The position numbers were made by a program, and so were the translations under genes. From positions 1 to 28,544 of the IMG/VR virus record IMGVR_UViG_3300031519_000158: a stretch of DNA of 28,544 nucleotides, one strand, 5' to 3'. The notes beneath the pieces are model-generated. The model saw only the letters and a program-made list of their open reading frames with translations. It did no database searches and was not told the DNA's origin. The DNA comes from a virus (taxonomy: Duplodnaviria; Caudoviricetes). Below are positions 3 to 19,440 of this stretch, one piece after another; within the stretch, counting starts at the first letter, position 1, and each line of letters starts with the position of its first letter.

Positions 3-3000
3 GTTCCTACTAACTACAACGCTGCAACTCGCACTTACACAGGTTTGTGGGACGGAACATTTCAAATGGCATGGACCGATAACCCTGCTTGGATCTTCCG
101 TGACATCGTTCTGAACGAGCGTTTTGGCGTCAAACGTTATGTAAGTTCTATCGCCATTGATCCTTGGTATCTTTACACCGTTTCTCAATATTGCGATGAG
201 CTTGTACCGTCTGGCAGCGGTGGAACGGAACCTCGTTTTACTTGCAATGTTTACTTGCAAAATCCAGGCTCGGTATATCAGGTGCTTAATTCGCTTGCCT
301 CTTGCTTCAGGGGTTTGCTTTATTACAGCGAAGGTGAGCTGTATTTAACGCAAGACCGGGAACAAGATGTAGTTCAGCAATTTAGTGAAGCCAATGTCAT
401 TCAAGATGTAGCAGAAAACGGAGAAGTCTCGTCGCCATGTTTTAGCTATACGGGTTCAGCAAGGTCAGCGCGTAAGACCGTAGTTTTAGCGAACTGGGAT
501 GATCCAACTCAGGTTTATTCAAGTGTCACGGAGTATCAGCAAGATGATGAGCTACTGGACAAGTTTGGGTATAACCCTGTTGATCTTCGCTTGATCGGCG
601 TTACGTCTCGCGGCCAAGCTTTACGCGCTGCCAAGCATACGCTTTTCAGTGACAGGTATGAAACAGAAAAGGTTAGTTTCCGCATTGGAGCGGAAGGCAT
701 TGCTGCTGGCGTTGGCGAGATTATCAAAATTGCTGACCCATTGAAGCAAGGTCAACGTCTAGGTGGTCGCATCGTATCTGTTGACGGAAACTTTATTACA
801 GTCGATGCAGTTTTAACGTTATCGCCTGGAACTGACTACACGCTGACTGTTGTAATCCCTGAAGGGGAAACGGTCACAAATAACGATGGTTCTATAAAGG
901 TAAATCCAAAGCTAGAGGTTTTAACCGTCGTTAGTTCCGCTAATACTGGCTTTGAAATTACCGACGCCAATCTTTTGGCTCAGGATTCCGATGAGCTTTT
1001 GACACAAGCCAGTGATAATTTAATTGCGCGATATATCAGCAGCGACGGAACCACTACCAGATTTGAGGTTAACTCAGCCGTACCAACGCAAAACGGTGCG
1101 TTATGGGTTCTTGAGTGGACCTCAATGAAGGCTGCAACTTATCGGATCATCTCGATTTCAGAAGTTGAGTCTTTGATTTATCAAGTTGAAGCCATTCAAT
1201 ATAACAGCAGCAAATATGGTTATGTTGACAACGATTTGCCGGTTGCAATACCAAAAGATCGTTTTACTCTTCAGCCTGTTAGTGAGCCGACAAATTTTAG
1301 CGGCATTCTTGAGTATTCAAACGGTCAGACATCAATTCAAGCTTCATGGCGTGCCCCACAAGTAAACAATTCAGTTGACTTACTGGTACGGGGTTACAGG
1401 TATCAATGGCGAAAAGTTGGCGACACGGAATGGTCAGACATTCTTCAATTACAGGCAACAGCAGTTGAAACGCCTCTTTCAACTCATACTTTTGGGAATG
1501 CCTATCAGGTCCGAGTCTCTGCCGTTAACCGGCTAGGTAGTCAATCTGATTGGGTCGTTTATGACGTTGACGCTTTTGCTCCTATCCCTGATTTAAGTGA
1601 TGCTGCTTTTGGAGCAACGGTTACGCACGCCAATCAACCAGATGGCACCCAGTTAATCATTGTTGATTCTGGAACGTGTCCGATTTTGCCTCGTATTAAT
1701 GGTTTCAAGTGTTGGGTCAAGCCTCGTAACCTATCGTCTGGTGAAATTCCTGGTGTGAAGCCGCCTGGTAATGATGGCTGGTATTTCTTGGCTGACATTC
1801 CGCTTACGGGTTATTACACCGTTGCGTTCCACGCTCCAGACACCTATGACGTTCGCGTTAACTTTACAAGTTCAATTTTTGGAGAAAACCCAACTGATTA
1901 CATCTATGACTTTGTAGAGCGGGGTGAGATTGCACCGCCAACTCCAAGCAACTTTAGTGTTGTTGAAAATCAGAATAGTAGTGGTAAGCGTTTTAGCTGG
2001 CAGCTGCCCACGACACAGTACGGCAGTTGGGACCAAAACCTTGTTGCTGATGTCGTGAGCTATGAGGTTAAGTACAAAAAAGGAACGCTGGCGCTAAACG
2101 TTGTCGAGTTTGAAGTTGCGACCGATCTTGTCACAGTCAAAACCTCAACAGTGATCGGCACCAGGACTAACCAGCATTTGCTGAGTATTGGTGATGAAAT
2201 TGAGTTTGCGGTGTCTTCTGGGTCGTTGCCTACCGGGGTTGTTTCTGGAACGACTTACTTTGTTGCGAGCGATGGCTTCACAAGTACAGCCTTCAAAATC
2301 AGTGCAACAAATGGCGGTGCTGCAATTGACTTTACTGGCACTGCAACTGGAACATATAACGTTTCAGGCCCAGTAGATCTAAAGACTCGACTAGACATTA
2401 CCGCTACTTGGGGCGCTGGTATTGAATTGGCATCTGGTGGCTTGCCTGCACAACAGCAATGGTTTGAGACAAGTTTGTTTGACACTGGCACTTATGTGGT
2501 GATGGTCAAGTCAGTTGATGCAACGCAATGGCGTGCAGATCTTCCAGCGTATGTATTGGTAAACATAGGCGCTCCACCAATTAGCAATGCAGTGCAGTCA
2601 ATTGATGCAAAGAACGCACCAAGCAATGATTGGCCTGGAACGTATGACAACTGCTCTCTTGCTATGGGTCTCCTGCTGACTCAAGACGAAGGCTCCCTCT
2701 TGACTCAATTAAACGACAAGTTAGCAAGAAACAACGAAGAGTATTTAGCTCAGACAGATGCAACGCTTGACAGCTATTTTACTTGGACTTTTGACAACAA
2801 TAATCTTGAAAGCGCATTGCTGTTTTCCACGACTTCAACTGCGACTTATTCACATTCGCTGGTTGCGTTAACGGGTCAAGCAACTGAGCTAACGCAAGAG
2901 GATGATTTTGATCTTTTGCAGGAGAACGATGATCGAATTTTGGCTGAACAACGGTATTACTCGCCAACAGAGTTAGCAGAAGGCGGAGTTGTTCACCCTT

Positions 3001-3356
3001 ACGCGCCATTTGAGAAGCTACTTGGTGATGTGTATCGAGTCGAGACGCGCTTCAAGAGTCCTGATGGCGGAACGACTGCTGGCAACATCACGGCATTAAC
3101 GGCTCAACTTGACTATCCCGACGTGATCGAAAAGCAAAACGATGTTTCAATTTCTAACGTTGGAACGGCAGTGGCGTTGACCAAAACATTCCGAGCGGTT
3201 TCAAGCGTTTCGATTACAGCTTTACAAACAGGTGGAAGTACTGCTGCTATGGCGTATGTGACTGCTAAATCGACAAGCTCAGTTACGATTGAGTGCAGGA
3301 ACTCATCCGGTGCTTTGGTTGCTGGACTTGTTGACATCACAGTAATTGGTTACTAA
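3..3356 (+). CDS. Tail tip / central tail fibre protein (lambda gpJ-like host specificity protein), 5'-truncated by the window edge
   Basis: Frame is open from nt 3: VPTNYNAATRTYTGLWDGTFQMAWTDNPAW, then YCDELVP..G.GG.EPRFTCN and GVTSRGQALR, all lambda-J family motifs. FN3-like segments further on. The TTG at 45 in the ORF track is not the true start. Confidence 0.92.
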   Translation, partial: VPTNYNAATRTYTGLWDGTFQMAWTDNPAWIFRDIVLNERFGVKRYVSSIAIDPWYLYTVSQYCDELVPSGSGGTEPRFTCNVYLQNPGSVYQVLNSLASCFRGLLYYSEGELYLTQDREQDVVQQFSEANVIQDVAENGEVSSPCFSYTGSARSARKTVVLANWDDPTQVYSSVTEYQQDDELLDKFGYNPVDLRLIGVTSRGQALRAAKHTLFSDRYETEKVSFRIGAEGIAAGVGEIIKIADPLKQGQRLGGRIVSVDGNFITVDAVLTLSPGTDYTLTVVIPEGETVTNNDGSIKVNPKLEVLTVVSSANTGFEITDANLLAQDSDELLTQASDNLIARYISSDGTTTRFEVNSAVPTQNGALWVLEWTSMKAATYRIISISEVESLIYQVEAIQYNSSKYGYVDNDLPVAIPKDRFTLQPVSEPTNFSGILEYSNGQTSIQASWRAPQVNNSVDLLVRGYRYQWRKVGDTEWSDILQLQATAVETPLSTHTFGNAYQVRVSAVNRLGSQSDWVVYDVDAFAPIPDLSDAAFGATVTHANQPDGTQLIIVDSGTCPILPRINGFKCWVKPRNLSSGEIPGVKPPGNDGWYFLADIPLTGYYTVAFHAPDTYDVRVNFTSSIFGENPTDYIYDFVERGEIAPPTPSNFSVVENQNSSGKRFSWQLPTTQYGSWDQNLVADVVSYEVKYKKGTLALNVVEFEVATDLVTVKTSTVIGTRTNQHLLSIGDEIEFAVSSGSLPTGVVSGTTYFVASDGFTSTAFKISATNGGAAIDFTGTATGTYNVSGPVDLKTRLDITATWGAGIELASGGLPAQQQWFETSLFDTGTYVVMVKSVDATQWRADLPAYVLVNIGAPPISNAVQSIDAKNAPSNDWPGTYDNCSLAMGLLLTQDEGSLLTQLNDKLARNNEEYLAQTDATLDSYFTWTFDNNNLESALLFSTTSTATYSHSLVALTGQATELTQEDDFDLLQENDDRILAEQRYYSPTELAEGGVVHPYAPFEKLLGDVYRVETRFKSPDGGTTAGNITALTAQLDYPDVIEKQNDVSISNVGTAVALTKTFRAVSSVSITALQTGGSTAAMAYVTAKSTSSVTIECRNSSGALVAGLVDITVIGY

Positions 3357-4474
3357 TGGCTGACGCACGCATCTCCCAGTTACCAGCCGCAACGACGGTT
3401 GCAAGCCAGGACATTGTCCCGTTCACAAGTATTAGCGCAAGTGAAACGCGCAAAATTACGGCTAATAACCTGGCAATTGTTCTAACCCAGCTGGGTTTGA
3501 CGGTTGGAACGTCTGCTCCAACGACTCCTTATAACGGTCAGCTTTGGGTTGACACCAATACGAACCCGCCAATTCTGAAGGTTTATAACGGCGCAACGTT
3601 TACAACTGTTAGTTTTCTGCCTGGGTCGTCAGTTGCTACAAGCCCAAGTGGCACTGCACCTTCAAGTCCAGTTTTGGGGCAATTATGGCTCGACACATCT
3701 CAAACGCCGGATGAGTTGAAGGTTTATGACGGCGCAGCTTTTGTTCGCGTTGATCCCTTAGGTATCACTGATACTGCGGCAGCGGCTAAGTATTTGCAGA
3801 TTACCAACGCTGCAAGTACATATTTGACGTTGACTGGTGGGACGTTGACGGGGAACCTGACGCTAACGGGTAACCCCACAACAACCAATATGGCCAGTAA
3901 CAAGGGCTATGTTGACGCCCAAATTGCTGCAATCCCGGCAGTAACTGACCAGACGCCTGCTGGAACGGTTATTTATTCGGCAAGATCTACTGCTCCAACT
4001 GGTTACATCAAGGCAAATGGTGCTGCGATTAGTCGATCAACGTTTTCAGTGTTGTTTGCTGCAATCGGTACGCAGTTTGGAGTTGGTAATGGGTCTACCA
4101 CGTTTAACGTGCCTGATTTGCGTGGTGAATTTATCCGTGGTTGGAGTGATGGTCATACGGTTGACAGCGGTCGAACGCTAGGCAGCAACCAAGGAAGTGC
4201 AAACCTATCTCACAATCACGGAGTCAGCGATCCTAGCCACGCTCACGGAGTTCACGATCCTGGGCACGCGCACAGTCTTACCGCAGCTCGTCAAACGGGA
4301 AGTGCTGCATCAGGAAGCGGAGATAACGAATGCTCAAACCAAAACTTCTCTACAAACGCTGCCGGAACAGGCATCGGAATCCATGGTGCGACCACTGGAA
4401 TCAGCATTAATGCCAATGGCGGCAATGAATCACGTCCCAGAAACGTGTCCTTATTGGCCTGTATCAAGACCTGA
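3356..4474 (+). CDS. Tail fibre protein with phage tail-collar domain and His-rich (HxH) tip
   Basis: PAGTVIYSA...PTGYIKANGAAISRSTFSVLFAAIGTQFG.G.GSTTFNVPDLRGEFIRG is a tail-collar motif. Ends ESRPRNVSLLACIK. Two GQLWxDT...LKVYxG repeats and HNHGVSDPSHAHGVHDPGHAHS. TAATG overlap with J. Confidence 0.9.
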   Translation: MADARISQLPAATTVASQDIVPFTSISASETRKITANNLAIVLTQLGLTVGTSAPTTPYNGQLWVDTNTNPPILKVYNGATFTTVSFLPGSSVATSPSGTAPSSPVLGQLWLDTSQTPDELKVYDGAAFVRVDPLGITDTAAAAKYLQITNAASTYLTLTGGTLTGNLTLTGNPTTTNMASNKGYVDAQIAAIPAVTDQTPAGTVIYSARSTAPTGYIKANGAAISRSTFSVLFAAIGTQFGVGNGSTTFNVPDLRGEFIRGWSDGHTVDSGRTLGSNQGSANLSHNHGVSDPSHAHGVHDPGHAHSLTAARQTGSAASGSGDNECSNQNFSTNAAGTGIGIHGATTGISINANGGNESRPRNVSLLACIKT

Positions 4475-4509: not shown

Positions 4510-6285
4510 ATGGCCGACATCAAAATCACTGATCTGACTGCTTACACAGATCCGGTTAGCACTGATGTGCTGCCTATTGTTGATGTTGGCAATGATCTGA
4601 CCAAAAAAGTCAGCATTGCGGACCTGCTGGAGAACGCTGGAACGGGTAGTGCTGCTGCACCTTCGTTTAGTTTTGATGGCGATAATGATACGGGTATTTA
4701 TCGGCCTGGGGCGGATCAGGTTGCTATCAGCACTAATGGTGTTGAGCGCGTTGAGTTTGGCACCAGCGAAGTGGTGTTCAATGATGGCGGTGCTAATGTT
4801 GACTTCAGGGTTGAAGGCGACACTAAATCTAATTTGTTCTTGATTGACGCAGGAAATGATAGCATTCAGACCGATGGCCCTATTGGCGTAGGCGGTGCTA
4901 ACTATGGAGCAGCAGGTCAAGTACTTGTCTCCAATGGATCCAGTGCAGCCCCAACCTGGGAGCAAGTTACTCCATCCGCAGTCTTTGGCTGGGACCACGA
5001 CGATGATACTTATGGGCTTTATCTGCCAGGTACCAGCATCAAAGTCAGCGACCTTACGGGCGCGGTAGACATTGACGTTCAATCGCGAATGCGTCGTTGT
5101 GTCATTAACGATGCTGGGGTTGTTCAGTATTACCTAGACGCTGATGACAGCGACATGAAAGCAGGCGATTGGCTTCGCATTATAGAAACTGAAGCACTTG
5201 ACACTGCTTATACTGGCACAATTAGTGAAAGCACAAATAGTTCACTTCGTGTCGGTGTACCGGCATGGGCTGCTGGTACGTTCACCGTGGGGCAGCGTGT
5301 TACGAATGGCGGGTACTTGTGGGAATGCCTTGCAGCCACTTCAACCGCTACACCTGCCGCTGGTGCAGTAGCAAGTGACCTTACAGGTACTGGTGGTCAA
5401 GTGGTTGTTGAGGTGCCTGCATTCAGCGTGCGTTACGGCTTCTTAAATGGTGTTCACACCCGTGAAGTCAAATTGGGTTGTAACGATGGTCTTATTGCCC
5501 AAGGTTTCCGACCACATCCTGCATTTATCAAGACAGACGGTACTTACAAAAGTGCGTTCTATTTTGGGGCTTATCACACCTATGACGATGCTGGCACTGG
5601 ATCTAGCGTAAGCGGTCAAACAAATACCCGCAGCCAAACCCGCAACACCTTCCGCGCCGAAGCCGCAGCCCGTGGCACTGGATGGCATGTATTGTCTTAC
5701 TTAGAGCTGGCTGCTATTCAAACACTGCTTATTTGCGAGTTTCAGGATTACAACTCACAAAAAGTGATTGGTAATGGCCCTGATGCTGGCACAACTTATG
5801 GAGTGACAACAGGTCAAAGTGATGGTGATGGTAATCACAGCGTCAACAGCACTGATAACGGTTCCAATGCTGATGATTACATGTCATATCGCGGCATTGA
5901 AAATCTTTATGGTCGCGCGCGGCAATTCGTTGACGGCATAAACGTTTATGAGCGAGTGGTCTATTTGACTAATGATCAAACAGCTTTTGCAGACAACACT
6001 GCTGATGGTTATGACTTTTACGCTCAAGTTCCAACTGGATCAGCGTCATACCAGAAAGAGCTACATCCGTTAGCAGATGTATTTTTACCGTCTGTTGTGA
6101 CGGGAGCAAGCAGCACGACGTACCTGGGAGATGCTTTCTGGACCTTTTCCGGGTGGCGTGTGGCCGATGTGGGGGGCGATTCCAGCCTTGGTACGCGGGA
6201 TGGGGCCTTCTGCTTGGTTCTGAGCCTTGCGTCGGGCAATTCCAGCGCGGTCGTCGGGTCTCGCCTGGCGTATGCTGAAAATTAA
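4510..6285 (+). CDS. DGR target protein: tail fibre/receptor-binding adhesin with C-terminal C-type-lectin-fold (FGE/Mtd-like) variable domain
   Basis: N-terminal MADIKITDL fibre domain and GSAAAPSFSFDGDNDTGIYRPG motif. C-terminal SYRGIENLYG...VDG and GG......DGAF.L......S....GSRL, typical of DGR CLec targets. The last 46 codons contain the VR. Confidence 0.88.
   Translation: MADIKITDLTAYTDPVSTDVLPIVDVGNDLTKKVSIADLLENAGTGSAAAPSFSFDGDNDTGIYRPGADQVAISTNGVERVEFGTSEVVFNDGGANVDFRVEGDTKSNLFLIDAGNDSIQTDGPIGVGGANYGAAGQVLVSNGSSAAPTWEQVTPSAVFGWDHDDDTYGLYLPGTSIKVSDLTGAVDIDVQSRMRRCVINDAGVVQYYLDADDSDMKAGDWLRIIETEALDTAYTGTISESTNSSLRVGVPAWAAGTFTVGQRVTNGGYLWECLAATSTATPAAGAVASDLTGTGGQVVVEVPAFSVRYGFLNGVHTREVKLGCNDGLIAQGFRPHPAFIKTDGTYKSAFYFGAYHTYDDAGTGSSVSGQTNTRSQTRNTFRAEAAARGTGWHVLSYLELAAIQTLLICEFQDYNSQKVIGNGPDAGTTYGVTTGQSDGDGNHSVNSTDNGSNADDYMSYRGIENLYGRARQFVDGINVYERVVYLTNDQTAFADNTADGYDFYAQVPTGSASYQKELHPLADVFLPSVVTGASSTTYLGDAFWTFSGWRVADVGGDSSLGTRDGAFCLVLSLASGNSSAVVGSRLAYAEN
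6145..6265 (+). repeat. DGR variable region (VR)
   Basis: 121-bp ungapped match to 6341-6461 (offset 196). 21 mismatches, 20 of them opposite TR adenines. Ends in TCGGGTCTCGCC. Confidence 0.96.
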
Positions 6286-6292
6286 GAAAAGC

Positions 6293-6298
6293 TATACT
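6293..6298 (+). promoter_or_regulatory. Candidate -10 box (TATACT) for the TR-RT transcript
   Basis: Matches the recurring (GC)TAnnnT box seen before many genes in this window; located between the target stop and the TR. Confidence 0.35.
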
Positions 6299-6303
6299 TA
6301 TAC

Positions 6304-6325
6304 GGTGATGCCAAATTACATCACC
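6304..6325 (+). other. Inverted repeat/hairpin downstream of VR (candidate DGR homing cruciform or 5' structure of the TR RNA)
   Basis: GGTGATG (6304-6310), 8-nt loop, CATCACC (6319-6325), 18 nt after the target stop codon. Confidence 0.5.
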
Positions 6326-6340
6326 TTGGCTTGGCTCTGT

Positions 6341-6461
6341 TTTTCCGGGTGGCGTGTGGCCAATGTGGGAGGCAATTCCAACAATGGTACGCAGGATGGA
6401 GCCTTCTACTTGAATCTGAACAATGATTCGGGCAATTCCAACACGAACATCGGGTCTCGCC
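6341..6461 (+). repeat. DGR template repeat (TR)
   Basis: 29 adenines, with 10 AAY codons in the VR-equivalent frame. A-free 5' end (21 nt) and 3' end (12 nt). Lies directly upstream of the RT gene. Confidence 0.96.
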
Positions 6462-6579
6462 GTTGCCCCCAGGTTTTTAGTGAACCATACAGAGCAGGCC
6501 ACACCTCTTGGTGAAACAACTGCACCGCATAAAGCATTAGTAGGTACGCCGAATATGCTGCGACGCTGGGGGCTTAAAA
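6462..6579 (+). ncRNA. DGR spacer (Sp) RNA segment between TR and RT, structured
   Basis: GCCCCCAG (6465-6472) pairs with CTGGGGGC (6566-6573). Internal CACC-TCTT-GGTG hairpin (6502-6513) and an AGCAT-TAGTAG...CGAAT-ATGCT stem (6533-6559). Confidence 0.65.
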
Positions 6580-7626
6580 ATGAAACGTTATGGTAATTTA
6601 TATCATCAAATTTACGACATAGAAAACCTTCGGGTTGCTTACGAAAATGCAAAGCGTGGCAAGACCAAAACTCAACAAGTTATAAAAGTAGACGAAAATC
6701 CTAATTGTTATTTGCTTAAAATACAGCAACTGTTAGAAGATGAAGCATTTGTGAATGGCAAATACACCACTTTCGAGCTGGTAGAGCGCGGCAAACATCG
6801 CGTTATCCATGCCTTACCATTTTTCCCTGACAGAATTATTCACCATGCAATCGTTCAAATTATCGGTCCAATATGGATAAAAACGTTTATCCGCGATAGT
6901 TATTCCTCGATACCAGGCAGGGGCATACATGATGGCGTTAGACGCATCAAACGTATAATGCCGAACTGCAAGGGATGGTATGCGTTGAAATGTGACATCA
7001 AAAAATTTTACCCATCGATAGATCATGACGCACTTAAAACAGCTGTCCGCGCAAAGATAAAAGACCCAAGCCTGCTAAAGATTCTGGATACAATTATTGA
7101 TTCTGAAGAAGGCGTACCGATTGGTAATTACTTAAGCCAATATTTTGGTAACGTAATATTTAACTCATTTGATCATTGGATAAAGGAGGATCAAGGCGTT
7201 AAGTATTATTTTAGATATTGCGATGACTTTGTCATTCTTGCCCCAAGCAAAGAAAAACTTCATTTGCTAAAGAAAGAAATAGAAAGCTACTTAAAGCAGC
7301 TTAAATTAACACTAAAAGAAAACTGGCAAATATTTCCTATTGATTCTAGAGGCGTTGATTTTATGGGTTATCGTTTTTGGTGTGATAAAACTTTGGTTCG
7401 CAAAGCAACCATTCAGCGATTTAAGGAAAGATTGAAGGTCAAGCGTATGACGTTGAATGAAGCAATTCGACTGCGACATGTCATTGGATCTTTTCGCGGT
7501 TGGCTTCGGTACGCTGATACGTCTAAGCTGATAAACGAAAGCGTATTGCCAGCCAAATCCCGTGTCAAAGCCTACCTTCGTAAATTACGGCAGCGATTAT
7601 CCCAGACCTCGCTTCGTCAAGAATGA
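6580..7626 (+). CDS. DGR-type reverse transcriptase (bRT-like)
   Basis: KxRVIHALPFFPDRIIHHAI, SYSSIPGRGIH, LKCDIKKFYPSIDH, GVPIGNYLSQ (DGR-diagnostic IGxxxSQ), RYCDDF (YxDD) and GVDFMGY. 348 aa, with no maturase or endonuclease extension. Confidence 0.96.
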   Translation: MKRYGNLYHQIYDIENLRVAYENAKRGKTKTQQVIKVDENPNCYLLKIQQLLEDEAFVNGKYTTFELVERGKHRVIHALPFFPDRIIHHAIVQIIGPIWIKTFIRDSYSSIPGRGIHDGVRRIKRIMPNCKGWYALKCDIKKFYPSIDHDALKTAVRAKIKDPSLLKILDTIIDSEEGVPIGNYLSQYFGNVIFNSFDHWIKEDQGVKYYFRYCDDFVILAPSKEKLHLLKKEIESYLKQLKLTLKENWQIFPIDSRGVDFMGYRFWCDKTLVRKATIQRFKERLKVKRMTLNEAIRLRHVIGSFRGWLRYADTSKLINESVLPAKSRVKAYLRKLRQRLSQTSLRQE

Positions 7627-7930
7627 GTGGCTTGTTCCGTATGCCGTTACCCCAAGCACTGATGAGGATGGCGTAATCAGCTACGAAGCAAGCGAAGTTG
7701 CAAGCAAGACGCTATTTGCACACGATCTTGATGCCGTGGTTCCAGCAGGTAATGATGCTGACGTGATTGAAGCCGTTAAACACGGGATCAGATTGCAACG
7801 AGCAGCGGAATACCCACCGATTCAGGATTTTCTAGACGGGGCCGCCAAAGACGATCAAGACCAAATCGATGAATACAAGGCTGCCTGTCTTGCAGTAAAG
7901 GCAAAGTACCCGTTCCCCGAGGAGCAGTAG
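7562..7930 (+). CDS. Small acidic protein, probable tail-fibre-associated/assembly protein
   Basis: C-terminal RAAEYPPIQDFLDG...CLAVKAKYP resembles small proteins found after phage fibre genes. The GTG start overlaps the RT 3' end by 65 nt, so the start is uncertain. Confidence 0.65.
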   Translation: MSKPTFVNYGSDYPRPRFVKNEWLVPYAVTPSTDEDGVISYEASEVASKTLFAHDLDAVVPAGNDADVIEAVKHGIRLQRAAEYPPIQDFLDGAAKDDQDQIDEYKAACLAVKAKYPFPEEQ

Positions 7931-8050
7931 TATCAAAAGCGCACTCCAACTAAGCCTGGTGCAGAAGACATCGAGGTTCAAGCCAATAAACAGGCTTGGA
8001 TCGATGAGCAACGCGCACCAACCAAATCCGCCGGGGTGCCTTGGAACTGA
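7931..8050 (+). pseudogene. Start-less chimeric gene remnant (39 codons)
   Basis: Open frame YQKRTPTKPGAEDIEVQANKQAWIDEQRAPTKSAGVPWN* directly after the TAG of 7562-7930. Shares KPGAE with 8596-8661. No ATG; the only GTG is three codons from the end. Confidence 0.45.
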
Positions 8051-8083: not shown

Positions 8084-8422
8084 ATGGCAGTTTCCCCAGG
8101 TATCTACAACATCACACTGCAACGCAGGGCAGATTACTATGTCACATTGCAGTTCAAGGACTCGACGGGAACTGCCATTGATTTAACAGGCTGGACGGTA
8201 GAGGCACAGTCTTGGGATGAAAACCGCAACAAAAAATACGTGGACTTTGCGGTTGCGTATACAGACAGAACAGCAGGCACTGTTTCAATTTCGCTGACAG
8301 ATGCTCAAACGGAAACGCTTCCAGTACTGAGCTATTACGATGTCTTGCTGACCGACGTATCAGGGTTGAAGGAATATTATCTTGAAGGGAAAATCACTTC
8401 AAGCGAAGGTTACACAGCATGA
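8084..8422 (+). CDS. Beta-sandwich virion/tail protein (BppU-N/LtfC-like, tentative)
   Basis: Strong RBS AGGAGGT at 8072-8078. The pattern IDLTGWTVEAQ...GTVSISLTDAQT...YYDVLL...YYLEG is common in phage tail accessory proteins. Confidence 0.7.
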   Translation: MAVSPGIYNITLQRRADYYVTLQFKDSTGTAIDLTGWTVEAQSWDENRNKKYVDFAVAYTDRTAGTVSISLTDAQTETLPVLSYYDVLLTDVSGLKEYYLEGKITSSEGYTA

Positions 8423-8589
8423 CAAGCGTCAATGTCACAGAGGTAAAAAATACCGTCACAGTGTCAGATGACGGTTCTACGGTCACAGTAACGACTGGTG
8501 CGATTAGTCAAGACACTTTTAATGCGCTTGTTAATCGGGTCACTGCATTGGAGTCAACGAATTATCTGGTCTTGCAGGACGGTAATTAA
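8419..8589 (+). CDS. Small hypothetical virion protein (56 aa)
   Basis: ATGA overlap with the upstream gene. MTSVNVTEVKNTVTVSDDG...YLVLQDGN*. Below the ORF-track cutoff. Confidence 0.65.
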   Translation: MTSVNVTEVKNTVTVSDDGSTVTVTTGAISQDTFNALVNRVTALESTNYLVLQDGN

Positions 8590-8595
8590 ATTTTC

Positions 8596-8661
8596 ATGAA
8601 AAGACCTGACCCTATGATCCCCAGCAAGCCTGGAGCGGAAATCGATGGCTACACCCAATAG
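8596..8661 (+). pseudogene. Truncated small gene (MKRPDPMIPSKPGAEIDGYTQ*)
   Basis: 21-codon ORF. Similarity to the 7937-8000 remnant ends at KPGAE, and the next gene starts at 8645. Confidence 0.4.
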
Positions 8662-8785
8662 CCTAAACGGCGCACAATTTGTTGTGAGCAAACCAAAGAA
8701 AACACGCCAAGGTAACGGTTTAAACAGCAAATCTTCTCATGGACGCAAGAATGGGAGGAAGTATCGCGGTCAAGGCAAGGGCTAA
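8645..8785 (+). CDS. Small basic protein (46 aa)
   Basis: MATPNSLNGAQFVVSKPKKTRQGNGLNSKSSHGRKNGRKYRGQGKG*. TAATG-coupled to the next gene. KPKKTRQG...RGQG is a pattern I recall from cyanophages. Confidence 0.7.
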   Translation: MATPNSLNGAQFVVSKPKKTRQGNGLNSKSSHGRKNGRKYRGQGKG

Positions 8786-8913
8786 TGGATTCCCGCACTT
8801 ACGAGAATTGGAGAAAAGTAAAAGAAGCTCTAGAAAGTGCCGGGAAAACTGATTGCATGTTTTACAAACGTGCTGTGACTATATTGGCGGGCAAGCCAGA
8901 CCCGCTAAAATAG
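8785..8913 (+). CDS. Small hypothetical protein (42 aa)
   Basis: MDSRTYENWRKVKEALESAGKTDCMFYKRAVTILAGKPDPLK*. Translationally coupled; family recalled from cyanophages. Confidence 0.7.
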   Translation: MDSRTYENWRKVKEALESAGKTDCMFYKRAVTILAGKPDPLK

Positions 8914-8934
8914 CAAGGTAGAGGCGCTTAAGTC

Positions 8935-9216
8935 GTGATTGAAATTTACGCAGCAATCCTAGGCGCATCTATCGGTATCGCGGGGATGTCCGTCTCTGGA
9001 TTCAGTAGACGCACCAGCGAATCGAGGGAAGCAGTTATTCGGCTTAGTGCTGGGTTGGAATCCATCGCCACCAAGTTGGAAGATTTGCACCAAGACATGA
9101 AGGCAGAAAAGGTTCAGGCGACTGCTGACCGACGCGAGATCTATGAACGGCTTAATGATCACGGCAATCGAATAATTTTATTGGAAAGCTCTAGGGCTAA
9201 AATCAATCCAGATTAA
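8935..9216 (+). CDS. N-terminally membrane-anchored coiled-coil protein (lysis-cassette, holin-like)
   Basis: Hydrophobic N-terminus IYAAILGASIGIAGMSV followed by a coiled-coil. Upstream of the endolysin. Confidence 0.7.
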   Translation: MIEIYAAILGASIGIAGMSVSGFSRRTSESREAVIRLSAGLESIATKLEDLHQDMKAEKVQATADRREIYERLNDHGNRIILLESSRAKINPD

Positions 9217-9226
9217 AGAGCAACCA

Positions 9227-9379
9227 ATGAGAATCGAAGAAGTTTTGGCGCACCCAGCATTCTGGATCGTTGTAGCGGCGGCAAGTGAGTTGATTGGAAT
9301 GTCGCCCAAGTTGCGTGAAAATTCCCTGTTGCAGCTTTTGTTTACAGCACTTCGCTCATTGAAAGCAAAAAAGGGCTGA
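9227..9379 (+). CDS. Small membrane protein, putative holin (50 aa)
   Basis: MRIEEVLAHPAFWIVVAAASELIGMSPKLRENSLLQLLFTALRSLKAKKG*. Two hydrophobic stretches, basic C-terminus, lysis-cassette position. Confidence 0.7.
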   Translation: MRIEEVLAHPAFWIVVAAASELIGMSPKLRENSLLQLLFTALRSLKAKKG

Positions 9380-9591
9380 TCCCTGCTGACGGCAGGTGGC
9401 TGTTCAGGTTCTCAACACGATCACCGCTTGAGGGATTGAAGCGCGAAATTCAACGTCGCAAGTTCGAGGCAACGCTTAAACCTCGTATCGACGCTGAAGT
9501 TGAACGCTGGCATGAATCACAGCCACCAGCCATGCCACCTCCCAAAATTGACGACTTGCACATTAAATCACCCTGGAATGACGAACAGTAA
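9367..9591 (+). CDS. -1 frame ORF probably reached by ribosomal frameshifting from the holin-like gene (fusion about 121 aa)
   Basis: A AAA AAG slippery heptamer at 9367-9373, hairpin at 9382-9396. The -1 frame is open 9319-9591 with no ATG until 9532 and fills the gap to the endolysin. Confidence 0.55.
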   Translation, partial: KKGLIPADGRWLFRFSTRSPLEGLKREIQRRKFEATLKPRIDAEVERWHESQPPAMPPPKIDDLHIKSPWNDEQ

Positions 9592-10651
9592 AGCAATCAC
9601 CCTTGAGCAACTTTTTCGGTACTACAAGAAGGAATTGCCTCATCAGACTGCGGCAATTCAGGAGCTAGAAGCAGATCTGAGCGAAAACGGCTATGACGTG
9701 GCAATGCGTCGCGATCGGGGATGGTTTTCGACATGGAGCCAATCAGGTAAACAGCGCAACTATCAAGCAGCAATTGCACTGGTGAAAAGCTTTGAAGGGT
9801 TTCACCCGGATGCGTATCTCTGCCCGGCTGGGGTGTGGTCGCTGGGCTGGGGGAACACCACAAAGGCTGACGGCTCGCCCGTAATTCCTGGCGATCGGAT
9901 CAGCCAAGAGGACGGTGATCAGCTCTTACAAAAGACAATCGATGGCATTGTCTCGGCATTGGCCGGCTCAATTCCCTACTGGTCAGCCATGACGGAGCAT
10001 CAGCAATCGGCGGTGATCTCATTTGCATACAACGTGGGGAGCTATTTCTACGGCCAGCAAGGATTTGAAACGATTAGCCGGTGCCTGCGCGAGCGGACCT
10101 ACAAAAGCGTGCCGTCGGCATTGCTGCTTTACTGCAATAAGGGCAGTGGCTTCGAGGCTGGCTTGACTCGCAGACGGAAAGCAGAAGGCCAGCTATGGGC
10201 CGGTGAACAAGCTGCAGCGCCAGAACCTGCAACGATCCGGCCTGAGTCACCGTTCAGCACCCGCCTGACGCCTCACATCACGCTGGGTGAGTTTGCACTT
10301 GGGATTGAGGCACGGCGCTTTGAGCATCAGCATCAGGTCGATATGGCCGCAGAGCTGGCGGCGTTTTTGGAGCGTGTTCGCGTCAAGTTTGGGAACAAGC
10401 CGATTATCATCACGTCTGGCTACCGGCCCCCGGCAATAAACCGCAAGGTTGGCGGTGCATCGCAGAGTGAGCACCTCTTTGACAAAGCCGGCGTTGGCGC
10501 GGTGGATTTTTACATTCAAAATGCTGACATCTGGGCGGTTCAGGCATGGTGCGAAGAGAATTGGCCCCATAGCGTTGGCCGTGCTGCATCGCGGGGGTTT
10601 ATCCATTTAGGCCGCAGAAAGGGCGGCTTGTGGGTCCGTTGGAACTATTGA
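9578..10651 (+). CDS. Endolysin: GH24 lysozyme domain plus C-terminal peptidase M15 domain
   Basis: FEGFHPDAYLCPAGVWSLGWGNT, SFAYNVG and GLTRRRKAEGQLW (GH24). TSGYRPPAINRKVGGASQSEH, AVDF and FIHL (M15 Zn peptidase). ATG 9578 preferred over TTG 9500. Confidence 0.9.
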   Translation: MTNSKAITLEQLFRYYKKELPHQTAAIQELEADLSENGYDVAMRRDRGWFSTWSQSGKQRNYQAAIALVKSFEGFHPDAYLCPAGVWSLGWGNTTKADGSPVIPGDRISQEDGDQLLQKTIDGIVSALAGSIPYWSAMTEHQQSAVISFAYNVGSYFYGQQGFETISRCLRERTYKSVPSALLLYCNKGSGFEAGLTRRRKAEGQLWAGEQAAAPEPATIRPESPFSTRLTPHITLGEFALGIEARRFEHQHQVDMAAELAAFLERVRVKFGNKPIIITSGYRPPAINRKVGGASQSEHLFDKAGVGAVDFYIQNADIWAVQAWCEENWPHSVGRAASRGFIHLGRRKGGLWVRWNY

Positions 10652-10954
10652 ATGTTCATTGAAGGGTCGGAGCTGATCCCACGGAAATGGGCTAAAGCTC
10701 GGTTTCGTAGGAGCATCCTTGAAGAATTTGGTCATCGCTGCGCGTATTGTGATGCGAAACTGACCGCTGGCAATACGACCCTCGATCACGTAAGGCCCAA
10801 GGCCAAAGGCGGCCAGACAGAGCGCAAAAATTTAATAGCGTGTTGTTCGAGATGCAACGGCCTAAAAGGCGCTCAGCCTTATCGCGAATGGTTCAGGTCT
10901 CAGCCGTTTTGGTCAGCAGAACGCGAGGCCAGGGTTGAACGCTGGATCACTTAA
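10652..10954 (+). CDS. HNH endonuclease
   Basis: CAYC...TLDHVRPKAKGG.T...NLIACCSRCNGLKG. Confidence 0.92.
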   Translation: MFIEGSELIPRKWAKARFRRSILEEFGHRCAYCDAKLTAGNTTLDHVRPKAKGGQTERKNLIACCSRCNGLKGAQPYREWFRSQPFWSAEREARVERWIT

Positions 10955-11108
10955 ACAATCCGTTATAAGCGTCCATCGCTTGCTGATAGTAAATTTCAGC
11001 CTGCCATTGTTGCCGGTGCTCGCGGGTAATCCCTGCAAACGTTACCCTCCAAATCGTGCCAGAAGTGGTCTGAACCTGTTGCATTGTTGGCGGTGTGCTT
11101 CCTACCAT
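10947..11108 (-). CDS. Small hypothetical protein
   Basis: MVGSTPPTMQQVQTTSGTIWRVTFAGITREHRQQWQAEIYYQQAMDAYNGLFK. Fills the gap between HNH and the next gene. Start could be 11144, 11108 or later. Confidence 0.55.
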   Translation of the reverse strand: MVGSTPPTMQQVQTTSGTIWRVTFAGITREHRQQWQAEIYYQQAMDAYNGLFK

Positions 11109-11129
11109 GGGGGAAATACATTCAGGAAT

Positions 11130-11348
11130 ATGGCGTTTGCTCATTGGCTAGTGCCATCAATGAGCCTAGAGAGGCAAGTAGATGTTGAATGTCATGCGCG
11201 ATCTGTTTTAACCGAAGGAACAGAAAAACAAATAAGAGAGCTTTGCAGCCAATTGGTAAGAACCTTAGCCGAAAGAGAGCAAGTGATGCTACAAGCTGTT
11301 GAGTATATTTCAGAAATCGAAATTCAGCTAGAAGACTTTAACAGCTAG
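11130..11348 (+). CDS. Small helical protein (72 aa), possibly NblA-like
   Basis: ATG 11130 with upstream AGGA and a TACCAT box. The pattern SLERQ...R......EKQIRELCSQLVR loosely resembles NblA. The CDS is likely real; the function is tentative. Confidence 0.55.
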   Translation: MAFAHWLVPSMSLERQVDVECHARSVLTEGTEKQIRELCSQLVRTLAEREQVMLQAVEYISEIEIQLEDFNS

Positions 11349-12228
11349 TTTTGAGGTATACGGCAATCTTTCTGATCGCCTTGTCTTTTTTCAACCTGAT
11401 GCTTTCCCTGCAGGTTCCTTTGGCTTTTGCGATTTGGGTAAGATTCTTTTCTTCGCCAGTCTTAAGGCCAAAATAGTCGCTGATTATCTGCTGGCTTTCT
11501 TCATCTAACCTAAGGATTGCAACCCGTATTTTTTCAATTTGTTCGTTTACCTCTATATCTGTATCAAAAGAATCTCCAGCTCTAGGATTTGACTCTGAAA
11601 AAGCGTCAATAATTGAGACTTTATTGTCTCCTTCAAAAAGCTGATCATCAGATGACTTGTGATGATATGACTGCGCCATTAGCTGAAAATCACCCGGCTG
11701 TAATCCTGTTAGCTTGGTGATTTGCTCAGTAGAAGGTGAATACCCATGTTCAAAGTAAAAATCTTTTAAGATCTTTTGTGCTTTTATAAATCGATTTAAC
11801 ATTGAGTCAGGTACTCGAATCATCCTGTCAGTTCCATATATTGCGCGGCTAATTGCTTGCCGAATCCACCAATACGAATAAGTGCTAAATTTGTAGCCTC
11901 TTTCCGGATCGAACAATTCAGCCGCTCTGCTTAATCCGATTGCTCCTTCTTGCAGTAAATCAGCAAAAGTTAAGGTTTTAGGGTTTGCCTTGAGCAACAT
12001 CTTTCTCGCAACACTTGCAACTAGCTTTATGTTGCTTTTGACTAGCTTTTCTTTTGCTCTTTGCCCAGCCCGCAACTGTCGTTTTTGAATATCACTTAGT
12101 TGATCTTTGGGCAAATCTCTTAGTTCAACGTATTTTTTAATCTGTCTGCCTAGCTGAATCTCCTGGCTTGCTGTCAACAGCGGAAACCGGGCAATTTCGT
12201 TTAGGTACTGCCCGGCAGAATCCATCAA
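11338..12228 (-). CDS. Phage-encoded RNA polymerase sigma-70 family factor (RpoD/group-2-like)
   Basis: Region 1.2 YLNEIARFPLLTASQEIQLGRQI. Region 2 LVKSNIKLVASVARK and DLLQEGAIGLSRAAELFDPERGYKFSTYSYWWIRQAI. Region 4 HTH LTQIAKAKGTCRESIR. Confidence 0.95.
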   Translation of the reverse strand: MMDSAGQYLNEIARFPLLTASQEIQLGRQIKKYVELRDLPKDQLSDIQKRQLRAGQRAKEKLVKSNIKLVASVARKMLLKANPKTLTFADLLQEGAIGLSRAAELFDPERGYKFSTYSYWWIRQAISRAIYGTDRMIRVPDSMLNRFIKAQKILKDFYFEHGYSPSTEQITKLTGLQPGDFQLMAQSYHHKSSDDQLFEGDNKVSIIDAFSESNPRAGDSFDTDIEVNEQIEKIRVAILRLDEESQQIISDYFGLKTGEEKNLTQIAKAKGTCRESIRLKKDKAIRKIAVYLKTSC

Positions 12229-12611
12229 ATTAAAGGGATTAGAAAATCCCTTGATGCTACCGGCTCAGGGCTACGCTGCAGGCCAGTAATAAACGACTCA
12301 ATCCACTCTTGGTCAGCAGCTGTCAATGATGGCGTTGTACGGCAGGGCGCTGGCTGGGGCTGGGGTTGTGCTCCATTGTTACTGCTGCAATCGTCAGCAC
12401 TGGCATCAGGAACAAGCAGAAACCGCCAAGACGACGCAAGAGCGTCTGATGCCTTGTGGATTGCTTCCCCAAAGAAGAGGCCGGCAACATACGCGGCGCA
12501 AATTGCGGTAGCGATGGCTTTCGCTGTGATTTTGAGATGTTGGCCAAGGTCTTGACTTGAAATGATTTGGGGCACGTCATTGAAGGGGGGTGATGCGGAC
12601 TGAAAAAGCAT
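12225..12611 (-). CDS. Hypothetical membrane-associated protein
   Basis: Hydrophobic AIATAICAAYVAGLFFG segment; stop overlaps the sigma start. The ATG at 12611 lies inside a terminator stem, so the true start may be GTG 12575. Confidence 0.55.
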   Translation of the reverse strand: MLFQSASPPFNDVPQIISSQDLGQHLKITAKAIATAICAAYVAGLFFGEAIHKASDALASSWRFLLVPDASADDCSSNNGAQPQPQPAPCRTTPSLTAADQEWIESFITGLQRSPEPVASRDFLIPLI

Positions 12612-12633
12612 CGCTTAGAACCCCAAGCGATGC
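12603..12633 (-). terminator. Rho-independent terminator after ssb
   Basis: GCATCGCTT / AAGCGATGC 9-bp stem (12608-12633) with an 8-nt loop, followed on the minus strand by TTTTT. Confidence 0.7.
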
Positions 12634-12659
12634 AACCTTGCAGTTGTAAACCGCAACAA

Positions 12660-13124
12660 TCAGAAGGGAATGTCGGCCTCGGTCGCGGTCACTTCACCCG
12701 CGAACGTGTCTGCTACTGCTTTTGCGGCAACGTCAACAGGCGCAACAGGCTTAGAGGCTGGCAACGGCTCAGGGTTTTGAGTGACGTTCCTGAACTGCTC
12801 AGCGCAAATGATTAGATCAGTGCGGTCTTCGCCGTCCTGGGTCTTCCATCGGTTGGTCTTGACCCGGCCAGCCACCGCCACGAGATCGCCTTGAGCGCAT
12901 TGATCGCTAAAGGCGACCCCATGTGCTCCCCATATCTCAACCGTAAACCAATCAGGCTGAGAGCCGTCATCCTTCTTGGCTCCTGCTTTATTGATCGCGA
13001 TGCGACCTTTCGCGACGCAGTTGCCAGAATCAAACGTCTTTAGCTCAGGGGCACGCGCCAAGCGTCCTACAAAATTATGTGAGGCAGACCGCAGAACAGC
13101 GGCCATAATTTCTTGTCCAGTCAT
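12660..13124 (-). CDS. ssb: Single-stranded DNA-binding protein
   Basis: FVGRLARAPELKTFDSG, WFTVEIWG, GDLVAVAGRVKTNRW and an acidic tail ending DIPF. ATG 13124 preferred. Confidence 0.93.
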   Translation of the reverse strand: MTGQEIMAAVLRSASHNFVGRLARAPELKTFDSGNCVAKGRIAINKAGAKKDDGSQPDWFTVEIWGAHGVAFSDQCAQGDLVAVAGRVKTNRWKTQDGEDRTDLIICAEQFRNVTQNPEPLPASKPVAPVDVAAKAVADTFAGEVTATEADIPF

Positions 13125-13134
13125 AGTAAAAAAA

Positions 13135-13836
13135 TTAGAAAGGGTCAGCAATGTCAGCAGCAGGAGCAGGAGACGGCTCCGCATCTTGAACGACAACAGG
13201 CATTTGCTGCGCCGTGATCTGCTCATTCAGCTCCGCCACAACATTAGTGACCGGCGCGTCTTCAACTTGAACCCTTGCAGGCTTAATCGTCTCCATCTCT
13301 TCTTTGACCCCAAGGCCAAGCAACACTTCAGGCATAAACAAATTAATTAGCCGTGTTGCAGATCGCCACCTCAGCATTTGCTCAGGCATTGTCCGATACT
13401 TTGAATTGCTGGTCCAGCCATCAGCCTTGGCTTCTGCCAGTGAGACAGACACGTCAATCCGCTCACCTGTTTCTTTCATCGTTGCTTTGGCCGTCACAAC
13501 TAACGATTCACCGCTGCCGGTGGTCTCCCATGTGATCGGGCCAGAAAGCAGCCCTGACTTATTCGCCCGGCTAATTGAAAACTTGGCGCTTGTGCTTGGC
13601 TTGCCTTTGATGATCGCCACCTCTTGAAACATCACCATTGGATGCTCCCCAAGCTGTTCGGCATACATCAATGCAACTAAACACGCTTCAGGCTTGCCCT
13701 GAAAGTGTTGAGGCACCATCCCAGACATTGAGAACACTTTCGCTACCCGATACAGGTGCTCCAGTGCTTGGCCGTTGTGCAAGAACGCGAGCGGCGTTGG
13801 TGATTGCGTTGTCGTAATCGCTGATGAGTTCGTCAT
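13135..13836 (-). CDS. RecT/Red-beta-like single-strand annealing protein
   Basis: SGMVPQHFQGKPEACLVALMYAEQLG...IIKGKPS and AKADGW...KYRTMPEQMLRWRS. Sits between the exonuclease and ssb. Confidence 0.8.
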   Translation of the reverse strand: MTNSSAITTTQSPTPLAFLHNGQALEHLYRVAKVFSMSGMVPQHFQGKPEACLVALMYAEQLGEHPMVMFQEVAIIKGKPSTSAKFSISRANKSGLLSGPITWETTGSGESLVVTAKATMKETGERIDVSVSLAEAKADGWTSNSKYRTMPEQMLRWRSATRLINLFMPEVLLGLGVKEEMETIKPARVQVEDAPVTNVVAELNEQITAQQMPVVVQDAEPSPAPAADIADPF

Positions 13837-13895
13837 AGTTAGGCGGTTGAGGGTTTGTTCTGTAGCGGTAAAGCTCAAGCAGTTGCTTGTCAGCG

Positions 13896-14696
13896 TTAGT
13901 CATTGCACCATCCAGGCAGCTCAAGCGGCTCTTGGATCTGATCTCCATAACCAGGCCAGACACCAGAAGCTCTGCATTCTGCGATCTGCTCCAATGCCCT
14001 GCTGATCCGGCGCTGGCCCGCTGTAATCATCAGCGGCGACGCTGGGTAAACCGCTACGGCATAGGGCCGTATTGATTCAACAGCAATCGTGATGAACTGC
14101 TCAGCGCCAAGTGCATCTTGGTTCCATGCAGCTTGAATGTGATAAGAAAAATTGGCTGTGCTCTTGGCAAATCCAGATCGGCTTGCGTCTTGCGTGGTTT
14201 TTACATCCACAACAATCCGCTGATCTGCTGAATGCCAGTCAGGCCGGGTTTTGCATTCCACGCCTGTCGCAGCATCGGTCCAGCTATACGACTGCTCAAC
14301 CTTGCCCGGCATTTCAAGCAAAAATTTTGCCGCTGGATGGGAACGCACAGCCTCAGCCATGAATGCCACTTCCTCGGCATCGTCAGCGCTTAAAACGACT
14401 CGGCCTGCAGCAGCCTGCTCAAATTCAGCAGCAGCCGCCTTGCCTGCTTTTGTTCTGCGATCTAATCGCGGCTGAACCGCCACCACATCCGTCCATGTTT
14501 CGGGCTCTAAAACCGCAGTATGAAGCGCCGTTCCCTTTTGCATCGCTGCCGTAGGCGCTGCCTTGATCGCGTTTGGGTTCTCAAAGCGGTCCCAATAATG
14601 CAGCATCGTCCGCTCTTTCAACCTGCTAGGGCTGACCGCTGACATCGCGTGATATTCCTCATTGCTCAAGTTCGGGTGATGCGTCAGTTTTGGCAT
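13896..14696 (-). CDS. RecE/exonuclease VIII-like PD-(D/E)XK nuclease (DUF3799)
   Basis: SNEEYHA..AVSPS, GTALHTAVLEP, CKTRPDW, IVVDVKTT and YHIQAAW. ATG 14696 preferred. Confidence 0.88.
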   Translation of the reverse strand: MPKLTHHPNLSNEEYHAMSAVSPSRLKERTMLHYWDRFENPNAIKAAPTAAMQKGTALHTAVLEPETWTDVVAVQPRLDRRTKAGKAAAAEFEQAAAGRVVLSADDAEEVAFMAEAVRSHPAAKFLLEMPGKVEQSYSWTDAATGVECKTRPDWHSADQRIVVDVKTTQDASRSGFAKSTANFSYHIQAAWNQDALGAEQFITIAVESIRPYAVAVYPASPLMITAGQRRISRALEQIAECRASGVWPGYGDQIQEPLELPGWCND

Positions 14697-14770
14697 AGGG
14701 TGCTTTTGATGCCTCGGCAACATAACCGCGAGCATCCAAGAAACGCTCATTTGAAGTCGCATCTCTTCAC

Positions 14771-16213: not shown

Positions 16214-16520
16214 CCGCATCTTTCGTAATAACGTCGGCGCCTTAAAGGACAAGTCCGGGCGCCTAGTACGTTATGGCCTCCAAAAAGGCAGTTCAGATTT
16301 GATCGGTTGGACGACAAAAGAAATTAATGGTCAACGCATTGCCGTGTTCACTGCCATCGAAGTAAAAGACAAAGGCCGGCCTACACCCGAACAGCTCAAC
16401 TTCATCGCTCAGGTCAAAGCCGCAGGAGGAATCGCCGGGATCGCACGTTCCCCAGAGGAAGCCCTAGAGATTGTGAAGCAATACAACAGCGACCAAGGCG
16501 CAGCAGACCCGGCCCCGTAA
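16110..16520 (+). CDS. VRR-NUC domain nuclease
   Basis: FRNNVG, GSSDLIG, AIEVK..GRPTPEQLNF...GGIAGIARS. The start overlaps the helicase and is uncertain. Confidence 0.88.
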   Translation: MDTNQDGPTSNTKDAKSNEALVQQRIRLTLGRGHSRIFRNNVGALKDKSGRLVRYGLQKGSSDLIGWTTKEINGQRIAVFTAIEVKDKGRPTPEQLNFIAQVKAAGGIAGIARSPEEALEIVKQYNSDQGAADPAP

Positions 16521-16546
16521 CGTCGGCAGGCATTCCCCCTTCTGAC

Positions 16547-16768: not shown

Positions 16769-16926
16769 ATTGTCACAAGCTTTTGTTCTTCACGGTCTGC
16801 TGTCATATCCGCAGGCAGCCACGCCAATACGTTGAGGTGCGTGCCTACAGCCCGCAACATGCCAAACATCTTGCCTCGATTATTCACCCAAACGCTTCCT
16901 ATCGCATCGTTGTCCCTCACTTATGA
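16765..16926 (+). CDS. Small hypothetical protein (53 aa)
   Basis: GTGA overlap with the upstream stop and ATGA overlap with the primase start; fills the gap exactly. Confidence 0.55.
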   Translation: MNCHKLLFFTVCCHIRRQPRQYVEVRAYSPQHAKHLASIIHPNASYRIVVPHL

Positions 16927-19433: not shown

Positions 19434-19440
19434 TTTTTCG

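Follow-up and report, generated by a model that had tools for sequence, protein, structure and literature searches.

A diversity-generating retroelement in a likely Synechococcus siphovirus has rewritten the end of a predicted lectin fibre, in a cassette probably shared by transfer among cyanophages

Do two 121-nt repeats, one at the end of a fibre gene and one between that gene and a reverse transcriptase (RT) gene, in the virus record IMGVR_UViG_3300031519_000158 form an intact diversity-generating retroelement (DGR), which protein does it diversify and in what kind of phage, and how did it come to be there? The stretch analysed, positions 1 to 28,544 of the record (Duplodnaviria; Caudoviricetes), is referred to here as the window, and the record is a 71%-complete virus contig. 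In a DGR, the RT copies a transcript of the template repeat (TR) and the adjoining spacer, making errors at adenines, and this cDNA then takes the place of a variable repeat (VR) in the target gene, starting from a GC-rich 3′ core. The favoured reading, with a probability of about 80%, is that an accessory-free DGR in a KBS-S-2A-like siphovirus of likely Synechococcus host has rewritten the last 40 codons of a fibre with a predicted lectin fold, and that the cassette was likely transferred recently. The element comprises the following features.

4510..6285, + strand: target gene, 591-aa fibre protein (PHROG 5302 tail protein, E 2e-81)
5377..6282, + strand: predicted C-type-lectin domain (model pLDDT 90.4)
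6145..6265, + strand: VR, codons 546-585 of the 591-codon target
6254-6265: GC-rich constant core, the last 12 nt of VR, common with TR; likely core of the initiation of mutagenic homing (IMH) site
6304..6325, + strand: 7-bp inverted repeat with an 8-nt loop downstream of VR, candidate target-recognition hairpin
6341..6461, + strand: TR, 29 adenines, differing at 0-3 positions from the TR in each of the five closest cassettes
6462..6579, + strand: structured TR-RT spacer, likely the 3′ part of the DGR RNA
6580..7626, + strand: DGR RT, 348 aa, intact (IGNYLSQ, YCDD; Pfam RVT_1, E 2e-19)
7562..7930, + strand: ORF122, acidic small protein (pI 4.5), overlapping the RT 3′ end and travelling with the target

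VR and TR align without gaps over 121 nt at an offset of 196, and differ at 21 positions. Of the 29 TR adenines, 20 are substituted in VR (13 by G, four by T, three by C), and the sole non-adenine mismatch is a T to G change at 6231; the concentration of mismatches on TR adenines has a hypergeometric p of 5e-15. The adenines are spread over 19 codons, ten of which are AAY, and no stop can be reached from any of them. The original prediction had claimed this same alignment, adenine count and codon arrangement, and recomputation returned each value exactly. Across 13 VR/TR pairs, TR adenines were changed at 281 of 386 positions compared with 11 of 1122 other positions, with 159 G, 67 T, 55 C and 105 retained A. 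That count left out duplicates of one phage as well as L008 and L184 (eroded TRs), L182 (duplicated VR) and L188 (truncated TR); L089, being the record of the window itself, was excluded from all counts. The theoretical repertoire of the TR is 4^29, or 2.9e17, DNA variants and at most 9.4e15 protein variants. The figure of about 3e17 given originally is correct as arithmetic and stands as a ceiling, not a repertoire, because the realised substitution spectrum is far from uniform. TR adenines at third codon positions (6174 and 6204 in the window, and their equivalents) were changed to G in 40 of 44 cases and never to C or T, a much stronger G bias than at first and second positions.

The VR of the window starts with TR letters 4 nt further upstream than the VRs of relatives, as expected of TR-to-VR transfer. 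There is no other repeat of VR/TR size within the 28.5-kb window, nor a second target for TR on either window strand (next best score 76/121, against 120). BLAST found no remote targets in five related records, a weak test because it also missed the known second repeats of L011 and of the cultured Arctic Synechococcus phage S-EIV1. TR position 18 is G in the window and A in eight relatives, and the TR of L013 carries two VR-type changes.

The RT frame is open and carries both motifs, in agreement with its first description as full-length. Its best matches are DGR RTs, those among cultured or curated sequences coming from crAss-like phages and Psychrobacillus phage Perkons (40-45%). In an RT tree of 51 rows, none of them a lineage-3 reference of Wu et al. 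2018, of which 35 outside rows were picked by similarity from 105 and which was rooted only at the midpoint, the 16 RTs accompanying this target family made up one side of a 100/100 branch. The element is ordered target, 56-nt gap, TR, spacer, RT, ORF122. Avd was not found in the window, where there is no PF22296 match and only 56 nt between target stop and TR, and none of five related records, one of them 99% complete, gave a PF22296 match. The element is a genuine, intact DGR. In Architecture A1 of Wu et al. 2018, the core order is TR-RT without an accessory gene (PMC5758913), and the element is of this accessory-free type, if ORF122 is not an unrecognised accessory. The window RT is 39.6% identical to the lineage-3 RT of crAssphage LMMB, and the window VR ends in SRLA, the CLec3 motif according to the LMMB paper (PMC7290462).

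It was originally proposed that the tropism-switching mechanism of Bordetella phage BPP-1 operates here. This holds for the mechanism class and not for its particulars, as the BPP-1 DGR is described with avd and with a GC-rich GRNA-tetraloop hairpin after VR (PMC3240598), while Architecture A1 is found here and a scan of the window for hairpins found none of the GRNA type after VR. The inverted-repeat stem lies 38 nt past the VR end, with a loop of 8 nt; the 7-bp hairpin is predicted in the window, L006, L008 and S-EIV1, and other stems in L011 and L012. Positions 6497-6579 of the spacer match Rfam RT-17 (E 1.8e-4, 32.7 bits, below the 40.4 cut-off), and two-sided changes occur at 11 of 27 predicted spacer pairs among ten related sequences, a comparison without a separate control. 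A sigma-70 promoter scan gave no site before TR and four sites in all, against 5.9 expected. By eye, a TATAAT-like hexamer recurs before TR in several loci. A contig from the RNA library of run X15 covers the locus; such a contig is no proof of transcription.

Recent homing is shown by comparison of sequences. Among six cassettes with at least 94% nucleotide identity (window, L001, L002, L013, L090 and L005), VRs differ pairwise at 17-29 sites, mostly opposite TR adenines, and TRs at 0-4. Homing must be recent, since the same TR goes with different VRs in relatives. Between the window and a contig of run X7, 22 VR positions differ, of which 21 are opposite TR adenines and the other restores the TR base, compared with a single difference in 680 nt outside VR. 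Contigs break inside VR in three of four runs examined, and in run X9 the VR piece has a depth of 19, between flanks at 101 and 100. This population evidence consists of assembled contigs, not raw reads. It had been expected that TR would stay constant while VR varied, and the contigs and six cassettes follow this pattern, with L008 and L184 as exceptions. Homing is likely to be still current, to judge from these assemblies. A contig of X13 with 18 differences over TR was considered as an eroded template and rejected; its 1-nt insertion fits a relative of L006/L007 type.

The target consists of an N-terminal virion-anchor part, a middle domain and a C-terminal C-type-lectin (FGE-type) domain ending in VR. 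Residues 1-98 are 68% identical to the syntenic tail fibre of cyanophage KBS-S-2A, and residues 46-591 are 66% identical to S-EIV1 AHV82155. The gene fills the slot of the KBS-S-2A tail fibre CPKG_00003, after the central fibre J and a collar fibre. A sequence profile had matched the Thermus aquaticus prophage protein TaqVP (PDB 5VF4) at E 3e-4 before a structure model was made. The model of the C-terminal 302 residues, as had been called for originally, gave a lectin fold with TaqVP as best match (Z 26.8, rmsd 2.6 A, 255 aligned residues; Foldseek E 2.5e-14), followed by TvpA (Z 13.2) and Mtd (Z 12.8). By comparison with TaqVP, the VR residues would be surface-exposed. What was first called a receptor-binding fibre is a tail-module fibre with a predicted lectin-fold tip, which may be the receptor-binding site. 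It likely binds the host surface, and its diversification may track variation of that surface. L088 (2-5495) is from a close relative of the window phage (scaffold protein 93%, head morphogenesis protein 96%) and carries the same target domain (97%) on another N-terminus, in a head-gene block; this block copy has no counterpart in the window.

The phage itself is a KBS-S-2A-like siphovirus that likely infects Synechococcus-type cells, and a picocyanobacterial host is very likely. Ten of 18 window proteins tested match KBS-S-2A (NC_020854), whose host is Synechococcus WH7803, in the same order, with identities of 58% for TerL, 69% for portal and 71% for J. The eight best records for TerL are all Synechococcus and Prochlorococcus phages, and the initial description as a probable cyanophage is upheld. 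Two further features bear on the assignment.

45..4474, + strand: upstream tail module, central tail fibre J and tail-collar fibre (69-71% and 65% to KBS-S-2A)
11338..12228, - strand: cyanobacterial-type sigma factor, host marker (38% to the KBS-S-2A sigma factor)

The best NCBIfam model for the sigma factor is Sig70-cyanoRpoD (E 1e-60, below the model cut-off). An integrase was not found in the 28.5 kb, and the part missing from this 71%-complete contig corresponds to head-tail genes in KBS-S-2A; L007 and L011 have integrase genes near the cassette. A megablast search of 8084-20499 against cultured phages gave no match. In public runs, 20 of 21 rows hold part of the cassette and 16 at least half, from 15 studies, and the runs are labelled brine, seawater, estuary and marsh.

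Scanning viral contigs with the RT yielded 108 relatives, of which 79 loci were kept, and target scans added more. Their comparison defined a segment much wider than the repeats.

4863..7950, + strand: putative mobile cassette, 3.1 kb, comprising the C-terminal 470 aa of the target, TR, RT and ORF122

Identity to the window over this cassette is 98.0% in L004 (3088 nt), 98.0% in L001 (3019 nt) and 97.6% in the T7-like L013 (2671 nt). The common segment runs from 4863/4905 to 7923/7950, and the DNA on both sides is unrelated. L004 belongs to another siphovirus lineage, with TerL 32% and portal 33% identical to those of the window, and its RT differs at 15 of 981 bases; that of L013 differs at 16 of 981. 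The L013 genome (44.5 kb, 99% complete) encodes a T7 RNA polymerase and a capsid protein 86.5% identical to that of Synechococcus phage S-B28, and neither integrase nor Avd was found in it. A second T7-like contig, L062, holds the RT end and ORF122, followed by psbA two genes from the RT end. This position near psbA and the copy in the cultured Synechococcus phage S-EIV1 add to the case for a Synechococcus-type host. The near-identity of the cassette in unrelated virus types makes it likely that it moves between them as a unit, and a recent passage of the complete cassette between unrelated cyanophages is likely. The left edge lies inside a glycine-rich linker of the target, so that different backbones supply different N-termini, and among the 72 best protein homologues (at least 62%) this C-terminal domain is joined to many different N-termini. 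The right edge falls near 7950 in four backbones (window, L004, L013, L086) and at 7923 in one. L005 (5525-5957) and L062 (328-862) each have the opening 38 codons of ORF122 and, after them, another, diverged ORF122 beginning at a start of its own, an arrangement that resembles a recombination scar left by the arrival of the cassette. L180 (5961-9299) carries the target domain and ORF122 without TR or RT, with baseplate-type genes nearby, and from its genes is likely a T4-like phage.

Not all copies have kept the mutator. Of 22 distinct target-family loci with downstream DNA, 15, among them the window, retain TR together with a full RT, and seven do not. In S-EIV1 (KJ410740), VR, TR and spacer are kept and 26 of 33 TR adenines are changed, and 857 nt of RT are missing relative to L182. 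The remnant, with ORF122, is unannotated in that cultured phage (L080, 6396-7326, corresponding to about 21079-22009 of KJ410740). L083 has the backbone of L002-L004, with an HNH gene replacing TR-RT. Two templates beside a full RT are eroded. That of L008 (2944-3064) departs from the L007 TR at 17 sites, all adenines, keeping 14 of 31, in a pattern unlike that of L008's own VR; that of L184 (2415-2535) has no adenine left, 27 of 27 being changed relative to L012. Each is known from a single assembly, and self-homing is the likely source of their adenine depletion. In L182 (8780-8980), VR consists of two differently mutated partial tandem copies and the target-end frame is shifted; either aberrant homing or misassembly would produce this.

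ORF122 is retained in six of the seven RT-less loci, a distribution that speaks for a partner of the fibre and against an accessory of the RT. It gave no bAvd match in a profile search, and its model combines a beta-sheet with helices. It is likely a partner or assembly chaperone of the fibre and not an Avd. In the ESM Atlas, ORF122 falls in unnamed viral clusters, and XkdW is named on 32% of one cluster.

Several observations weigh against this account and give the alternatives their footing. S-EIV1 apart, every backbone comes from a metagenome assembly, and assemblers can be misled by a shared 3-kb cassette, a 98%-identical segment of that length being a repeat to them; the sharing across phages could then be an artefact, one cassette joined to wrong flanks. 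This is very improbable, as each backbone has its own cassette single-nucleotide polymorphisms, VR and in-frame N-terminal fusion, the separate T7-like contigs L013 and L062 agree on the head-gene region in which the cassette lies, a more distant copy is present in the cultured S-EIV1, a third phage type, and the flanks of the window are bridged by contigs of X5 and X6. Also adverse are the lack of psbA in the T7-like genome of L013, and a GTDB scan in which none of 10 loci was cyanobacterial and no cyanobacterial prophage copy appeared. The hairpin after VR is weak and non-canonical, with z-scores from -2.3 to +1.4. One VR is shared by L002, L003, L004 and L097 and another by X6 and X7, either as the same material assembled repeatedly or as persisting variants, a pattern that tells against a rapidly changing dominant type. 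Taken with the loss of RT in seven of 22 distinct loci of the target family and the RecT and exonuclease VIII genes of the window, this could describe an intact and dormant element, the VR differences being old and now shuffled by ordinary phage recombination. Dormancy is nevertheless improbable, given that between cassettes about 1-2% different elsewhere 17-29 VR sites vary, almost all of them TR adenines, that single runs show broken contigs and a drop in depth inside VR, and that RT and TR are intact.

The function of the diversified protein is somewhat more contestable. The neighbours of the target gene in L004, L013 and L088 are head genes, so the 'tail tip' location may not hold in every backbone. 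These are short-anchor forms, and the phages concerned also have their own tail tips, as would suit a fibre decorating the head or neck, which would bind particles or weak ligands of first contact and would not set host range. A receptor-binding fibre is preferred and the decoration fibre considered unlikely, since the window copy occupies the CPKG_00003 slot of KBS-S-2A with its 68%-identical anchor and the target cluster (PC_00002) is classed as phage structural in the relevant entry of Roux et al. 2021 (PMC8144416). The remaining alternative makes ORF122 the missing accessory factor, an Avd substitute working with the RT. The gene overlaps the RT 3′ end and follows RT in every RT-bearing clade locus with downstream DNA, and second and third among its Foldseek matches to viral models are proteins of 114 and 111 aa from the crAss-like cr50_1 and cr55_1 (E 6e-3 and 2e-2), where genes of these lengths, matched by organism and length only, overlap the 3′ end of a DGR RT. 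The likeness to these RT-overlapping genes is weak (TM 0.32; hhalign E 0.36 and 0.63), yet it lends the accessory role some probability. That role is nevertheless improbable, because the pI of 4.5 contrasts with an Avd average of about 9.5 in the data cited from Wu et al. (PMC5758913), and phage Perkons has a 449-aa gene in the place of ORF122. Three of the RT-less loci that keep ORF122 retain only the RT tail holding its start.

With a receptor-binding fibre and ORF122 as its partner, the element could work as follows. The TR-spacer RNA would be copied by the RT with adenine errors, the spacer hairpins presumably binding RT and priming cDNA without Avd, and the cDNA would overwrite VR from the 3′ core, altering a fibre tip that may be the receptor-binding site and for which ORF122 may be the assembly partner. 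Transfer would occur by recombination, with the left crossover in the glycine-rich linker of a resident fibre gene, which would supply a new N-terminal anchor, and the right one immediately beyond ORF122. Later, the mutator would often be lost, by RT deletion or loss of TR adenines, leaving the last tip frozen. A broader scheme is tentative, and we would sooner doubt than assert it: all picocyanophage tail types might share a plug-in module of adhesin and mutator, fixed at its right edge, that recombines into a resident fibre gene, explores possible tip sequences without Avd and later silences itself through template overwriting or RT loss. Hypermutation might then be a transient, transferable phase of lytic host-range evolution, and ORF122 conserved from cyanophages to crAss-like phages.

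The novelty suggested originally was not sustained, for the RT lineage is already present in DGR clade 1 of Roux et al. 2021 (PMC8144416). There, RT cluster Meta_3300001970_GOS2248_100354212 (32 sequences, target PC_00002) is listed as viral, aquatic or saline, with pure adenine bias and host taxonomy NA. It includes L012 (343-aa RT, 4648-nt contig; matched by dataset id and RT start), as well as RTs that match L008/L009 at the N-terminus by eye. The window RT is 62% identical to L012 and 83% to L008/L009, within the cluster's membership threshold of at least 50%. Unlike here, the cluster as tabulated carries no cyanophage assignment, cross-type transfer or RT-less copies. Neither the six contig names of the closest loci nor the word 'cyanophage' was found in the portions of the Roux supplements searched (PMC8144416). 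A full-text literature search found no report of a cyanophage DGR; subscription journals, the S-EIV1 paper and the Wu supplements fell outside it. Architecture A1/Lineage 3 (PMC5758913) and crAssphage LMMB (PMC7290462) have likewise the order target-VR-TR-RT, no avd and a lectin-fold VR. The LMMB paper counts 15 of 91 cassettes as complete and 66 as incomplete, and in that phage group, as here, the two kinds stand side by side (PMC7290462). Unlike in LMMB, the backbones here are cyanophages and a near-identical cassette spans siphoviruses and T7-like podoviruses. With BPP-1 (mtd-avd-TR-brt), the element has in common adenine-specific TR-to-VR mutagenesis, a C-terminal VR, the FGE-type lectin fold seen in Mtd, and a GC-rich 3′ core diverging between VR and TR; it differs in its lack of Avd, its 8-nt hairpin loop in place of GRNA, and the lack of an integrase in 28.5 kb. 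TaqVP, the closest solved fold, has a 40-residue C-terminal VR as here, and is a single-domain monomer from an Avd-bearing DGR, whereas the present target has about 290 extra N-terminal residues (PMC6328139). KBS-S-2A has gene order and anchor domain in common with the window, and bears another, 271-aa fibre and no annotated RT; S-EIV1 has target, VR, TR, spacer and ORF122 in common with it, and only the two RT ends. Mechanism class, architecture and RT lineage were already known; the additions are a near-identical cassette in unrelated cyanophage types and decayed copies, including one in a cultured isolate.

T7-like cyanophages are described as overcoming host resistance only in some cases (PMC5520035), and a DGR in a near-complete T7-like cyanopodovirus would offer a way round this limit. 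The cassette, at about 98% identity, indicates that the passage of a host-recognition module from one phage family to another can take little time. S-EIV1 provides a cultured natural negative control, and the element is a simple substrate for questions of DGR cDNA priming, because it is compact and Avd-free.

Other genes of the window were noted in passing. Tail fibre J (45-3356) contains repeated LLxQ(E/D)xxxxL motifs, seen in its sequence, which one might guess to be docking sites for side fibres. A 603-aa, very basic, Lys/Arg-rich repetitive protein (22409-24220) with no Pfam or PHROG match occupies the terminase-portal interval, where KBS-S-2A has an 85-aa gene. The endolysin (9500-10651) is a phage lysozyme fused to a peptidase M15 domain.

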